Assembly (NCBI GenBank): GCA_964016885.1
Contig: OZ024749.1
Span: 9,920,001 to 9,984,000, forward strand
Direction of reading: 5' to 3'
Length of the DNA: 64,000 bases
Source of the DNA: Eledone cirrhosa
Lineage: Eukaryota
Part shown: positions 21,363-62,230 of the stretch, piece by piece
How positions within the stretch are numbered: position 1 is the first letter of the stretch
Layout: each line of letters begins with the position of its first letter
Notes under the pieces: generated by a model
What the model saw: only the letters and a program-made list of their open reading frames with translations
Told to the model about the DNA's origin: nothing
The model's database searches: none
Position numbers and translations under genes: made by a program

Positions 21363-21553
21363 AATTATATAATAAACAACACAATATAATTATTCCATTA
21401 CCAAAGGTTTCAGGAAACTAGTCGATCCTTACAGAAACGTCCAGCCCGTTCATCAGATGTAGTTGAACGGGCTGGACATTTCTGTAAGAATCATCTAGTT
21501 TCTTTAAACCTTTGGTAATGGAATAATTATATTATGTTGTTTATTATATAATT
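21363..21553. repeat. Fold-back inverted repeat (~85-bp arms), probable inverted PLE terminal repeats
   Basis: Arms are reverse complements with few mismatches; homologous to 50520-50620. Confidence 0.85.
21395..21459 (-). ncRNA. Putative type-I hammerhead ribozyme
   Basis: Minus strand CAT-CTGATGA...GAAA-CC-TTT-GG-TA-ATG: core, stem III, GUA site and 3-bp stem I; stem II imperfect. Confidence 0.55.
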
Positions 21554-21554
21554 C

Positions 21555-21935
21555 ATCACCATCATCACCGTTTTACGTCCGTTCTTCCACGCTAGCATGG
21601 GTTAGACGGGTTGTCCTGTTGTGGGCAGTGTCCGGTCGGCTGACCTTGTCTTGCTCATACGGGAACTGATTCTGGCTTGATTTCTACAGCTGGATGCCCT
21701 TCCTAACACCAACCTCATTTACAGTGAGTGCTGGGTGCTTTTCTTTTTCCCGTGGCACCTACACATCCACTTTACAGTGTGGGCTGGGTGCTTTTTTTGC
21801 CGTGGCACCTCCACGACCACTTTGCAGTGGAATGATAGGGACTCCAGTCCTATCATCTCATTTCTACAGCTGAGTAAACTGGAGCAATGTAAAATAAAGT
21901 GTCTTGCTCAAGGAAACAACACATCACCCAGTCCA
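21555..21935 (-). mobile_element. CORE-like SINE with RTE tail, head truncated
   Basis: Near-identical to 16136-16548. Confidence 0.85.
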
Positions 21936-22193
21936 AGAATATATATATATGGAAAATAATAAAGAATTTCTTAATTTTCTAACTTGATTTTTTTTTCACC
22001 ACATACACATATATATATATCATCATCATTGTATAATATTATTTCTTATTATTTTGCCTTTCATCCTTCCGGGGTCGATAGAATAAAGTACCAGTAATGC
22101 ATTGGGTAATTGCTGGCCTTGTGCCAAAAGTAGAAACAATTATTTCTTATTATTTCTTATCTCTTATATAATTCTTCCATTATCAAATTCTAG

Positions 22194-22292
22194 GCGATAT
22201 CAGAGAGCAAACTAAAGGCTTTCAACATTGGTACCATGAATATTGGTAAGAAAGCACTGTCTAAGAAAGAACAGGAAGAATTAAAGAGAAAG
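22194..22292 (+). CDS. U2SURP: U2 snRNP-associated SURP motif protein (SR140), first identified coding exon
   Basis: TAG|AISESKLKAFNIGTMNIGKKALSKKEQEELKRK|GT; resembles human ENKLKAFSIGKM..LSKKEQEELKKK. Confidence 0.93.
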
Positions 22293-22884
22293 GTTTGTAA
22301 AGACATTTTATTTAATTTTCATTTCAGAAGAGTTTTTTTAAAAGTCAGAATCATTCTGACCATTTATAAGAGGTTGTCCAACTTTTTGGGCCATTGTTCC
22401 CCCCCTGCATATGGACACATAATATAATATATATATTATAAATATTTTATGTTTTTTATTTTACTATATATATATTATGTATCATTTGATATTTAATATA
22501 CTATATCACAAATACCCTTAGGTCCCAGTGCCCTCATGGGCCTTCTCAGCACCCCCAGGGGCAGTAACGCCCACTTTGAGCACTTCTGATTTATAATATA
22601 ACAGCAGGTCTTCTGTAACGGATTGTGTTGTTGAGGCCTCACGAAAGACGTGTTCACAGAACATATATCAAAGCCATCTCAGAGATCATCTCTCTCCAAG
22701 TTTAATCAATAAAGCACTCAGAACACCCTTAAAGTGGTTGACATTAGGAAGGGCATCCAGCCATAGAAGCCATGACAAAATATGCAATAGAGGAGTAAGA
22801 CATGGTTCTCCGAGCCATCTAGTTTCAAACCATGACTAATTATTCAACTCATGCCAACATGGAAAATTACGAGGAGGAAGTGTT

Positions 22885-23180
22885 AGACCAATGGTTCCCA
22901 ACTTGGGGCACACATCCCACAGGGGAGCAATTTGAAAATAATGTTAATGAGAGCAAACTTCAGATTTTACCCTGTTACTTTTACACCAAGGTAAATTTGG
23001 AACAAATTATGATCGGAAACTCGTCTCACCTCCTTCACGTAGTGCATCTGGCATCACCCACACACCAATTTTTTTATACTTTGTGGTTGGTCATTGCTGT
23101 TTTTATATCAAAGTGGGGCATAAAAATGTTTGAGATTTTGAGGTGTGTCATGGGGCATAAAAGGTTGGGAACCACTGAGT
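22885..23180. mobile_element. hAT/Charlie-like MITE
   Basis: TIR CAATGGTTCCCAAC...GTTGGGAACCACTG. Confidence 0.65.
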
Positions 23181-58620: not shown

Positions 58621-58842
58621 ATTAGTACAGATTAAAGTTTAAGCAAACAATTTCTGCTTTCACCCTAAAGCCAGATCTTCTGAAAACACACACATAAAAA
58701 TCTGAAAATATTCAAAGATTTTGTTGGTTTCCAGTTTTGTGCTTTTGTAAAAAAAATTTTTATATTTTGCCTTCTAAACCCTATGTTTTGTGGGGTGTTG
58801 ACACCCCTAACATATTTTGTTATACAATATTTATATTTTCAG

Positions 58843-58947
58843 GAGTGTACTGTGTGTAATCCACCGAATGATTGAGTTTGTTGTGCGTGAAGGACCCATG
58901 TTTGAAGCTATGATCATGAACCGAGAGATTAACAATCCTCTATTTGG
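58843..58947 (+). CDS. U2SURP: U2SURP coding exon (SURP domain)
   Basis: [46 protein letters not shown]. Confidence 0.96.
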
Positions 58948-60452
58948 GTAAGTTACTACAACTATACTGTTACTTCAACTACCACTGCTGCTACTACTAC
59001 TACTACCGGTTGGATGCCCTTCCTAACACCAATCACTCATGGTACCACCACAACAACCTGACAGACTAGACTGTGTGCTTTTGTCATGGCACCAGCACTA
59101 CCAGTTTACAGAGTCGGCTGAGCGCATTTTATCAGGGCACCAATACTATCGCTTTACAGTGAGTTTTGTGCATTTACATATTTGGAGCCAAAGCTTTATT
59201 GCGTTGCTACTCCAAGTTTCCACTTACACATTCATCATGGCTTGAGGGAGCAGTCACCATGAAGAACATAACAGGAGATGGATATATTGACTATGATGTC
59301 TCTGTTTCTACTAAATGATTTAACTCTACTACATGTATTGAGCTATTTTTCCCCTTGTTTGAATGACTATATGAATACAGTGGTCATATAATAATAATGA
59401 AATTATTGTGTACAGTGCTCAGGTGCACTACAACTCATCAAAGGTGCATGTATAATACATAGAATAATGTACAAATGCCAGGAAAGTGAACTGTGTGTGA
59501 GTCATGATATAAATACAGAAACGTGTGTGTGTGTATGGAGGGGGAATATCAGGTGTAGCGTTGGCGAATTTCAGGAAGCAAGGAAGTTTTAAAGGATGCA
59601 GTGTCCCGACAACTAACAACTGATGCAGGGAGTTTGTTCCATGCTTCAGCAAAAAACACCTAATCCACTCTGTAAGATGGTCATGCTAGTGTCACGAAAA
59701 AAAACCCCACCTAATCCACTCTGTAGGATGGTCATGCTAGTGTCTCAAGAAAAGAAACATCTAATCCACCCTTTAAGATGGTCATACTGGTGTCACAACA
59801 AAAAGCACTCAGTTCACTCTGTAAAGTGGTAGTGCTAATGATATGAACAAAGTTACCAGTACATGATGTAACGTCGTTGGCATTAGGAAGGACATCCAGC
59901 CATAGAAAACCAAATCAAACAGATTGTATGAGCATTACAAGACCATCAATTCATCGGGGTCATAGAACATTGGATATTTATTGCAAGTCTCTGTGTTCTG
60001 AGTTCATATCCCACCGAGGTCTCCTTTGACTTTTATCATTTCACGGTCAATAAAGTAGCAACTCTGTATTGGTGCAGCCTTCCATCTGTCACATCCTGGA
60101 TATTTAGCTGGATCAAGGGAATCAGGCTGTCTACTTGTGACTGTATGGGTATATAAAACCCTTAGTGAAGGCTTGGAATATACTAGGAAGCATCTCGATT
60201 ACGAGTGACATCTGTAGTAGTAGTAGTAGTAGTAGTACGTGCATTGTTACATATTGCTCCCATGTACATAGTTACATAATCAATCAACAATGTATTCATG
60301 CATACACACACACACACAGTCATGCCCACATACATATGCACACTCACACACATGCACACACACAAATAGTTACATACACAAACAACAGTGTGCAGACACT
60401 CACACACACACAATGTATTCTATCAATATCGTTAATCTTATTCTATTTTCAG

Positions 60453-60519
60453 GTTTTTATTTGAAAACCAAAGTCCAGCTCACACTTACTACAGATGGAA
60501 GCTCTTCACTATTCTACAG
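60453..60519 (+). CDS. U2SURP: U2SURP coding exon (SURP domain end)
   Basis: [34 protein letters not shown]. Confidence 0.96.
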
Positions 60520-61867
60520 GTAGATAGTAATTATTTCTTTTAAAATATGGCTGGGGGATCAGCTTTGAAGTGGCAACAGTCAACTTTGAAATATTAGAGG
60601 TCAACTTCGTAGGGACAGTGTTAGGGTCAATTTTGAAATTTCAGAGGTCAACTTTGCTTTCCATCTTTCTGGGATTGATAAAATTATTTTGGCAGTATCA
60701 GTAGAGTGTCAGACACCATGCTTTGCATAATAGAGTTACGGCCCTTTAGGTTCTGAGTTCTAATCCTGCTGAGGTTAACTTTGCCTTTCATCCTTATGGG
60801 GTTGATAAAATAAAGTATCAGTAATACACTGGGGTCAATTTAATTGACTTTCCTCTCCCTCAAAATTGATGACCTTGTGCCTTAGACCGTTGGCCTGAGG
60901 TTTGGTAGTATTTGTTCTGGTTCTTTACATTCTCAGTTCAAATCCTGGTGTGGCCAACTTTAAATCTTTCCAAGGTTGATGAAATACCAGTCAAGTACAA
61001 GGGTCAGTTCAATCAATTCCTGGCCCCTGCTGGCCTTGTGCCTGAATTAGAAAAGGGTTACTCCTAGTGGACCCATGATGGCAATAGCATTCAATGTATT
61101 TAATATTTGGAGTTCAGGATTGGTATGCCACATATAACAGGATTACTGGTTTTATTAACAATCATACAAATGGATACATTTTGATAAATTAATGACTTAC
61201 ATAAGAGAATACCTATAGTTTATGTTGATTACTGACACTTGGAAGTGATTGAAGATATTTTAGGAATTTATTTCAAGAATTTAATTATTTAAATGTTCAG
61301 TATACAAATGATATACAGGATTAAAAGTAACTTTGGAGAAATAACTATTTAGAGGGATAAATGTTGGGTTAGAACCCAAGATTGTGTGATTGGAAAGCAA
61401 ACTTTTTAGTGTAACAATATGACTGAGGTAGGAAATGCATTGTGTGTGTAAATTTTAAAGTGTTACAAGCACACTCACGTAAATATATATATATATGTGT
61501 CTGTGAAAAAGTTGTCCCTCGTGGCTAAAATCATACAAAATGAATAGAAAGGTAGCCGAAGACAACAGAAAAACAAACAAAACAAGACAGTCTCCTCACA
61601 TCAGTCAACCGCTTGTATCAGTCTTAAATTACTGAATTAACATATCTTTCATTGTCTTTGCCCACCTTTTTATTCATTATGTATATACACACACATACAC
61701 ATGTGGATTTTGTTGTGATAGCACTGGTCTTAGGATCAGGCAGTTCTGGAATCTGGTCTGGAGCATTAATCCGGACCATGAGCCAACTGTTTGTGAAACA
61801 ATTGTAACAAGGGCTGATCAATAAATTCTTAATGTAACACCTCCCTTTGTTCTTATTATATATATAG

Positions 61868-62230
61868 ATATTGTTATACTTTGGGAGGGTCATGCTGCCA
61901 ATAAAAACACATGCACCTGTTGGTTTTCACTTCAATTTATTATGAATTTCCGGTTGGTTATGGTGCGATAACCGGATAGTTCTTTACATATTGTCAAAGC
62001 TCTTTCGTCACACATTCTGTGACCTCCTCAGTGACTGGTTTTTTTATTTTGTGTCTTGCCTTAATCACTGAGGAGGCCACAGAATGTATGACAAATTAAC
62101 TTTGACAATATATAAACAACCATCCACTTATCGAACCAACCAACTGGAAATTTATAATAAATTGAAGTTAAAACCAACAGGTGCATGTGTTTTTATTGGC
62201 AGCATGAGCCTCCCAAAGTATAACAATATC
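61868..62230. mobile_element. Inverted pair of PLE terminal repeats (family of 39190-39390), no ORF
   Basis: Both arms align to 39190-39390 and end in CCTCCCAAAGTATAACAATAT. Confidence 0.9.
61993..62035 (-). ncRNA. Minimal type-I hammerhead ribozyme (best-preserved copy)
   Basis: Minus strand GTCA-CTGAGGA-G-GTCACA-GAATG-TGTGAC-GAAA-GAGC-TT-TGAC with perfect stems I and II. Confidence 0.8.

Follow-up and report, generated by a model that had tools for sequence, protein, structure and literature searches.

What are the short hairpins and solo units with hammerhead layouts that are scattered along a single gene of Eledone cirrhosa, elements in their own right or remnants of something larger? 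We addressed this question in a 64,000-nucleotide stretch of contig OZ024749.1 (hereafter, the window), for which a preliminary description had listed eleven such sites and taken them for a population of 130-360 bp ribozyme hairpin retroposons. Our analysis makes a different reading highly probable: the sites are 5'-truncated 3' ends of ordinary EN+ PLEs, with coding parents for seven families, whose hairpins were likely built separately at each insertion and whose copies are likely dead ends.

Truncated PLE ends in and just before U2SURP

The host gene was matched to U2SURP, with exon matches at 22194, 25587, 34709 and 62522, so ten of the listed sites are intronic; the remaining one, at 21363, lies upstream of the first matched exon and is likely intronic as well. 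All eleven sites are real. Self-BLAST recovered six fold-backs (21363-21553, 90%; 26390-26595, 71%; 36583-36708, 92%; 51797-51984, 74%; 52267-52464, 74%; 61866-62231, 82%), with E-values from 5e-17 to 2e-105, and the five solo units (39915, 44535, 50520, 58627 and 61770) are all members of repeat families. As described previously, most sites abut (TA)n. The extents needed revision: the fold-backs are present, but five of the six had been listed too short because of an extra tail on one arm. Four of these extend over 21298-21553, 26389-26731, 36496-36708 and 52192-52464, the fifth runs from 51797 to ~52035 or beyond, and the true start of the solo unit at 61770 is 61703. Each of the eleven sites is a 3' end, comprising a pLTR with a type-I hammerhead layout and an optional tail, and together they represent about ten PLE families. 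The features are as follows.

22194..62680, plus strand: host gene U2SURP; the span is that of the matched exons, and the gene may extend both ways
21298..21553, minus strand: family A head-to-head fold-back; parent ORF found
26389..26731, plus strand: family B fold-back; antisense arm ~26389-26442, decayed sense arm to 26595, ~135-nt tail
36496..36708, plus strand: family C fold-back whose antisense arm bears an 85-nt tail that the sense arm lacks
37366..37410, minus strand: a small remnant of family C, located where the coding PLE has its 5' junction
37402..39390, plus strand: coding PLE of family D, 5'-truncated and frameshifted; RT and GIY-YIG
39394..39432, minus strand: a short stretch of the family D 3' end in antisense, on the other side of a (TA)n from the coding copy and tail to tail with it
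39872..40099, plus strand: solo end with tail, decayed and akin to family E; core 39922
44535..44657, plus strand: family F solo end (family core CCGACGA) that inserted into a fragment of an RTE-type LINE
47962..50355, plus strand: coding PLE of family E, with an inverted arm that bears a tail (47962-48232), a fragment of the endonuclease region, a 3' UTR and a hammerhead end (50250)
50366..50617, plus strand: family J solo end; complete layout 50524, no tail, parent found
51797..52035, plus strand: family G fold-back with an approximate right boundary; the antisense arm is short, the sense arm is decayed, and a tail is present
52192..52464, plus strand: family H fold-back with a tail on the antisense arm only
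58624..58684, minus strand: family C solo end
61703..61859, plus strand: family I solo end, whose core (61729) has a single mismatch
61866..62231, minus strand: fold-back of a D-related subfamily; complete layout 62031 (minus), decayed layout 62068 (plus)

The family A fold-back illustrates the arrangement. Its minus-strand arm contains the 5' strand of stem I, the core (21456), stems II and III, the cleavage triplet, the main end and a ~60-nt tail, and its plus-strand arm begins inside the core and has no tail. In the fold-back at 61866..62231, both arms terminate at the same point. Some of the families are related to one another, family J being a sister of family A (75%) and the family B end being 70-78% like that of family F.

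Hammerhead layouts and core variants

A full or partial hammerhead layout had been assigned to every site. This holds in full for three short copies, which have a complete layout with an exact core (21456 and 62031 on the minus strand, 50524 on the plus strand), as does the coding copy at 39196 (plus strand); at the other sites the layout appeared only in the majority line of the family. These four complete layouts compare with one across eight shuffled windows. Allowing one core mismatch added 61729 (plus strand) and brought the total to 14 matches, several of them junk, versus 1-3 per shuffle. Type-I layouts with the anticipated extra nucleotide after A9 were seen in most families. The Rfam/Infernal check suggested earlier went the other way, returning no hammerhead match in the window up to E 10; likewise, positions 39150-39270 gave no hammerhead match in Rfam. 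A better-kept relative of the copy at 51798 reached 14.8 bits with Hammerhead_1 (E 0.63), the gathering score of RF00163 being 34. The Rfam microRNA matches were all under their own gathering scores and were discarded; the hairpin shape lies behind them.

Loss of the core from family consensus sequences had been named among the results that would count against the preliminary reading. The standard core is present in the majority lines of families A, B, H, I and J and in all 20 near-standard copies of family D, and the hammerhead stem sequences differ among families. At the family level, the standard CUGANGA core was not found in C, E, F and G. Family C carries CAGAAGA (U4A) in 27 of 30 cases, the other three being junctions; family E carries C/UUGAGAA (G8A), with A at position 8 in all nine core-spanning copies; families F and G carry CCGACGA, with C at position 4 in 21/24 and 11/21 copies, respectively. 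Stem II is long (40-60 nt) in several families, and stem III is 7 bp in family E. In minimum-energy folds of solo copies, stem II forms and the full three-way junction does not (z-scores 0.6 to -2.9); a single reference among the five used missed the core and was disregarded.

Coding parents of seven families

At least three families had been listed as having no parent in the window. In a wider search, seven of the ten families (A, C, D, E, F, G and J), four of which the preliminary description could not place, have parents in the genome in which the 3' end is continuous with an ORF for RT and C-terminal GIY-YIG. The proposed PLE origin, the existence of several distinct families and the dependence on PLE RT are all supported. 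The coding parents of families D and E lie inside the window. Two families had been matched to coding PLE ends there; these matches are to relatives (73-75% identity between 61868 and the 39190 end, and 77-84% between 39915 and the 48039 and 50166 ends).

For family C, the ORF is collinear upstream in three of 30 genome-order loci (L051, L068 and L069), and L278 contains the inverted arm, ORF, UTR and end. Family A shows ORF end, UTR and A end in succession in L114 and L134 and an inverted ORF in L095. Partial tandems, in which a pLTR is followed by the next ORF, were found for families A (L470) and J (L416 and L430), with the tail running into the ORF start. An upstream ORF and a downstream F end occur together in 6 of 20 loci, the query being one, and the family G parent was found in L353 and, inverted, in L354. 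The copies that reveal the family A parent are decayed. Another candidate for this family, L351, carried the ORF of a different family, and 19 further copies of its UTR lead into another hammerhead family or into no tested end; adjacency can thus mislead. ORFs downstream of the G copies L166 and L147 were also rejected, being separate insertions behind microsatellites. For families B, H and I, no parent was found in the 134 loci searched; upstream walks for B and I met no ORF, and one I walk ended on an unrelated repeat.

As far as the translations could be read by eye, the longest parents resemble the Hydra clade of C-terminal EN+ PLEs (Craig et al. 2021, PMC8557442, section 11). RWK is apparent in A and J, DKT in J and the CxCX5C linker in C and E, with CxxC and CxH around conserved E and N and no CCHH; (TA)n targets and hammerheads are shared as well, and this likeness applies to the parents of A, J, C and E. 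A Pfam search of the family C parent gave no match. The coding copy of family D instead has a CX4CxxC linker (Neptune-type). That paper describes few families per genome, whereas here there are tens of thousands of ends; the 3' UTRs are also unlike those described for that clade, at 0.95-1.5 kb (~1.3 kb in the family E copy of the window).

Fixed 3' ends, variable 5' ends and one-sided tails

Each family has two fixed 3' ends, a main end and a tail end, and variable 5' ends, with copies ranging from ~60 bp to >1.5 kb. Relative to the core, the 3' ends lie at +70/+155 in family C and +99/+159 in family A, and the 5' starts range from +1 to beyond -1490 in C and from +37 to -274 in A. The variable 5' ends pile up inside the hammerhead, and copies span the cleavage site intact.

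An inverted arm adjoins the copy in 26 of 60 genome-order loci (22 independent insertions after removal of three double-counted pairs and one duplicate pair); long examples are L278, L095 and 47962-50355 of the window. The tail is on exactly one arm in all 26: the partners of the 15 tailed sense arms all lack it, and those of the 11 tail-less sense arms all have it. In another family A sample, L023 and L024 have tails on both arms, and the arms at 61866..62231, which end alike, are a further exception to the asymmetry.

The apices are diverse, although some recur. Nineteen family E hairpins met by chance in flanks had 19 distinct apices. Genome-wide, we found 15,179 family E mini-hairpins, all without the catalytic core; among the first 50, counted by hand, there were 36 different apices, the two commonest (six each) occurring on both subfamily backgrounds. 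Strong microhomology at the apices was considered and dropped, since inspection by eye shows 0-1 nt in common at the most frequent E junctions. A pattern search for the family C arm gave 19,826 matches, and overall the genome carries tens of thousands of such ends.

This insertion pattern matches the published PLE pattern. Canonical EN+ PLE units (Craig et al. 2021, PMC8557442; Arkhipova et al. 2013, PMC3846280) likewise have a head-to-head inverted truncated copy with a tail at one end, strong 5' truncation, microsatellite targets, and partial tandems in which a tail is followed by the start of another ORF. Their tails are 30-40 nt, versus ~60-140 nt here, and, unlike in those units, about half of the family E exact-match ends are mini-hairpins that stop short of the core. 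The hammerheads agree with the minimal, short-stem-III type-I hammerheads of PLEs (Cervera and de la Pena 2014, PMC4209133) in the extra nucleotide after A9, the palindromic short stem III, the many families per genome, the predominance of solo motifs and the opposite-strand pairs; such pairs, 100-700 bp apart, were ascribed to truncated PLEs in that study. They differ in the long stem II of several families, the 7-bp stem III of E and the variant cores of C, F, G and E.

Origin of the second arm

How might the hairpins be built? The parent RT-endonuclease would nick both strands of a TA-rich target, and cDNA synthesis would start at two staggered sites on uncleaved RNA. Such starts were shown in vitro for the Anolis Poseidon element PAc (Frangieh et al. 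2024, PMC11167929), in which two RT start sites bound the tail, targets are AT-rich, and both strands are cut and extended; PAc belongs to another clade, and the joining of inverted units is not described in that work. RT would often halt within the structured hammerhead, and the two cDNA ends would presumably then be joined head to head; little or no cDNA from one strand would leave a solo end. The product would agree with the inverted truncated copy and one-sided tail of PLE insertions (PMC8557442, Fig. 2 legend).

Alternatively, the same dead-end PLE ends may have gained their second arm by self-priming, with the cDNA or antisense template folding back and being copied, a mechanism put forward by Arkhipova et al. 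2013. We regard this as possible but rather doubtful. In its favor, many of the apices consist of a short palindrome or a tiny loop, the two arms of a hairpin have subfamily-specific bases in common, and self-priming from palindromic junctions is argued for in PMC3846280. However, a snap-back arm is limited to the sequence of the first arm. In L073, L079, L090 and L094, the inverted arm consists entirely of tail sequence and has nothing in common with its partner, and in L053, L057 and the window copy at 36583, the tail-less arm extends further 5' than the tailed one; both misfit unless later deletions intervened. The tail-only arms thus favor two separately primed cDNAs over self-priming. As a counterpoint, tail-only arms may stem from later deletion across the apex.

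We tentatively propose a specific form of separate priming, which we call twin priming, a phrase that a non-exhaustive search did not find in four PLE papers. A dimeric RT-endonuclease might start one cDNA from each tail-bounding site, on opposite strands, before the two are joined. In these Hydra-clade families, the main role of the hammerhead fold might then be to halt RT at a family-specific point, with cutting secondary, and broken cores (U4A in C, G8A in E) could thus have been no bar to the spread of two of the most abundant families, which left more than 15,000 core-less mini-hairpins.

Hairpin retroposons and MITEs

The original proposal, that some families are non-autonomous 130-360 bp ribozyme hairpins, transcribed and re-mobilised as such by PLE RT, now appears improbable. 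It could appeal to families B, H and I, parentless in our samples, to the H sample, in which no common sequence exceeds ~60 nt upstream of the core, and to the very high number of mini-hairpins. Non-autonomous PLE derivatives do exist, as described for Chlamys (PMC8557442) and in the form of tandem retrozymes (bioRxiv 10.64898/2026.07.22.740005). However, the lengths form a truncation series, common sequence reaches ~700 nt upstream of the end in B copies and ~550 nt in I copies, and the sampled B, H and I copies are mostly solo. Apices are not inherited, and the commonest hairpins, the E mini-hairpins, lack the catalytic core. A full hairpin is also predicted to bury the hammerhead in a 90-bp rod. 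A fixed unit length with an inherited apex was not found for A, C and E; those sampled for B, F, G, H, I and J came from the top BLAST hits to the window copies and are biased to similar lengths.

The copies share with metazoan non-LTR retrozymes (PMC7761336; bioRxiv 10.64898/2026.07.22.740005) their short, ORF-less, PLE-derived nature and type-I hammerhead. Retrozymes, however, form tandems in which hammerhead-bearing units follow one another head to tail, whereas the copies examined here are dispersed, head to head or solo, form no such tandem arrays and are continuous with coding parents.

DNA-transposon MITEs with TA target duplications, which the preliminary description had already rejected, are suggested by the inverted ends, the TA flanks and a Tc1/mariner-like MITE shape at 55276-55363, but this reading is refuted for families A, C, D, E, F, G and J and exceedingly improbable overall, as the ends are asymmetric, single-end copies occur, apices vary, PLE ORFs for RT and GIY-YIG are continuous with the ends, and fixed symmetric TIRs with a TSD were not found. 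The microsatellite flanks gave no readable target-site duplication, a point that also counts against the main reading.

Implications for PLE biology

As ordinary PLE debris, the elements should be grouped with their parents in repeat libraries and not entered there as MITEs or novel retroposons. The tail-only arms, the stops inside the hammerhead and the non-standard cores of two abundant families are of modest interest. The origin of inverted PLE units and the need for hammerhead cleavage are still called undefined in the discussion of PMC8557442, and this genome is a good natural data set for both: its tens of thousands of young ends have readable arm lengths, making twin priming and self-priming countable, and its family-level core variants provide a direct test of cleavage.

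Hammerhead-bearing PLE ends around U2SURP

The hairpins and solo units named in the preliminary description exist: self-BLAST recovered six fold-backs in the window (E-values of 5e-17 to 2e-105), and five solo units were also found to belong to repeat families. Together they represent ten families, A to J, of hammerhead-bearing 3' ends of Penelope-like elements (PLEs). The window has a GC content of 39% and many AT microsatellites, within an assembly of 3.0 Gb. Ten of the sites are located between exons matching U2SURP (U2 snRNP-associated SURP protein). The site at 21363 lies 640 bp ahead of the first matched exon and, since that exon begins at a splice acceptor, is probably intronic too.

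PLE-end families and U2SURP exon matches in the window
21363: family A
26391: family B
36583, 58630: family C
39190: family D; relative at 61868
50166: family E; relative at 39915
44530: family F
51798: family G
52270: family H
61770: family I
50520: family J
22194, 25587, 34709, 62522, + strand: U2SURP exon matches

Other repeats occur in the same region. RTE-type LINE fragments at 43664-44700 and 16924-17442 match reverse transcriptase (RT) and PHD-finger sequences, and family F is inserted in one of them; a long tandem repeat of short period, open in three frames, spans 23330-24768. Away from the tabulated sites, a decayed fold-back (70%) at 53645-53818 had no visible hammerhead layout, and an 88-bp fold-back at 55276-55363, whose ends are of the CAGGGTGTC type and which is flanked by TA, has what we take to be a Tc1/mariner MITE-like shape. 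Inverted pieces flank (TA)n tail to tail at 12387-12476 and 39363-39432, the latter being the family D 3' end.

Hammerhead layouts and core variants

The hammerhead layouts proposed for these elements were recovered in part by descriptor but not by Rfam, which gave no hammerhead match anywhere in the window; its best hammerhead score was 14.8 bits, for one family G copy, against a gathering score of 34. A descriptor combining the exact core, GAAA, NUH and stems I-III matched four window sites (21456-, 39196+, 50524+ and 62031-), compared with one match across eight block-shuffled windows. Allowing one core mismatch gave 14 window matches versus 1-3 in shuffled windows, the gains being 61729 and several chance matches. 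The layout was also recovered in the majority lines (18-30 copies per family) of A, B, F, G, H, I and J, with stem sequences that vary from family to family. The complete solo layouts at 39196 and 50524 are intronic and lie on the U2SURP pre-mRNA strand.

In 27 of 30 loci the family C core is CAGAAGA; by eye, stems I and III pair in register, and stem II has U opposite U at its base. This family, represented at 36635-36700, is young and very abundant, with the U4A core fixed. All nine family E copies spanning the core have A at core position 8, and families F and G prefer C at core position 4; U4C is described by Perreault et al. (2011) as reducing activity, yet found in nature. An extra nucleotide after A9 and many solo motifs are already reported by Cervera and de la Pena (2014, PMC4209133).

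Anatomy and coding parents

All of the elements represent 3' ends of longer units; each runs from the hammerhead through the main end and an optional tail to a microsatellite. Thirty loci each of C and A were sampled in genome order: relative to the core, family C copies have their 3' end at +70 or +155 and their 5' start anywhere from +1 to beyond -1490, and family A copies have their 3' end at +99 or +159 and their 5' start between +37 and -274. The 5' ends concentrate in the hammerhead: in family C, 12 of 30 lie between -9 and +1, with none from -40 to -10; in family A, eight of 30 lie between -7 and -13; and those of family E accumulate in hammerhead loop II. Some copies run intact across the cleavage site.

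At least three families had initially appeared to have no parent in the window. ORF-bearing parents were found for A, C, D, E, F, G and J, and none was reached for B, H and I among the 134 loci searched. Family C (19,826 exact genome matches to a 31-mer) has an endonuclease region ~950 nt upstream in 3 of 30 loci, and locus L278 carries an inverted arm, a 501-aa RT-endonuclease stretch, the UTR and the end. In family A (359 genome matches to a 32-mer), the tail continues into an ORF start at L470, at L114 and L134 the 3' part of an L470-type ORF is connected by the UTR to the A hammerhead, and the parental ORF is present as an inverted arm at L095. Locus L351 was dropped as an A parent, being a chance neighbour. 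The family J tail leads into an ORF start at L416 and L430, with a UTR similar to that of A. For family F, 6 of 20 loci pair an upstream ORF with a downstream F end. L353 holds the ORF, UTR and end of family G, and L354 has the end of that ORF in inverted orientation; coding copies of D and E lie in the window itself. Copies of B and I have 550-700 nt of upstream sequence in common, and the end of B shows 70-78% similarity to that of F.

Motif reading found RWK in the A and J parents, DKT in J and a CxCX5C linker in C and E, all Hydra-clade marks according to Craig et al. (2021, PMC8557442). As far as read, these four parents thus carry Hydra-clade motifs, and the CX4CxxC linker of family D is of the Neptune/Nematis type, both placements being by motif and not by tree. 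Loci L368-L373 hold another PLE family, outside A-J, which carries an ORF and has a hammerhead end of its own.

Evidence against propagation as hairpins

The preliminary description viewed the elements as ribozyme hairpin retroposons of 130-360 bp mobilised by PLE RT, and the evidence speaks against hairpins being propagated as hairpins. Apices varied among 19 family A hairpins, and 19 family E hairpins encountered incidentally in flanking sequence had 19 apices. Roughly half of the 56,814 exact family E ends genome-wide sit in mini-hairpins (15,179 with a loop of <=30 nt); a hand count of the first 50 gave 36 apices, the two commonest on both subfamily backgrounds. Judging from their pattern, these mini-hairpins turn within ~30 nt upstream of GAAA and lack the CUGA core, and therefore cannot be ribozymes. 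A core-bearing fold-back is predicted to form a single rod (-127.8 kcal/mol) in which the core is buried. Family E, at 50200-50355 in the window, has a very sharp family-specific stop, and its mini-hairpins turn in hammerhead loop II.

Formation of the inverted units

Five of the six fold-backs in the window carry the tail on one arm only; in the sixth, at 61866, both arms have the same end. Exactly one arm is tailed in all 26 two-armed loci (22 independent insertions), with two exceptions in another family A sample. In vitro, a lizard PLE protein cuts and extends both target strands, uses two start sites bounding the tail, prefers AT-rich DNA and takes uncleaved RNA as its template (Frangieh et al. 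2024, PMC11167929).

Overall, the copies are very likely dead-end PLE ends. Within this reading we favour twin priming, in which each of the two start sites would prime one cDNA, on opposite target strands, RT would halt in the structured region, and the cDNA ends would then be joined. Self-priming, suggested by Arkhipova et al. (2013, PMC3846280) as the origin of the inverted arm, is the less probable route: at four loci the inverted arm consists of tail alone, with no overlap with its partner, which speaks for twin priming instead, although later deletion could mimic such arms.

Earlier work anticipates these structures. Opposite-strand hammerhead pairs 100-700 bp apart are read as truncated PLEs by Cervera and de la Pena (2014, PMC4209133), and an inverted truncated copy with a one-sided tail is drawn by Craig et al. 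(2021, PMC8557442). Retrozymes, as outlined in a review by de la Pena (PMC7761336) and by Li et al. (2026, bioRxiv 10.64898/2026.07.22.740005), are tandem, whereas the window elements are non-tandem. The window elements are real and biologically ordinary debris of PLE ends, and their main value lies in a countable clue to how inverted units form, together with their non-standard cores.
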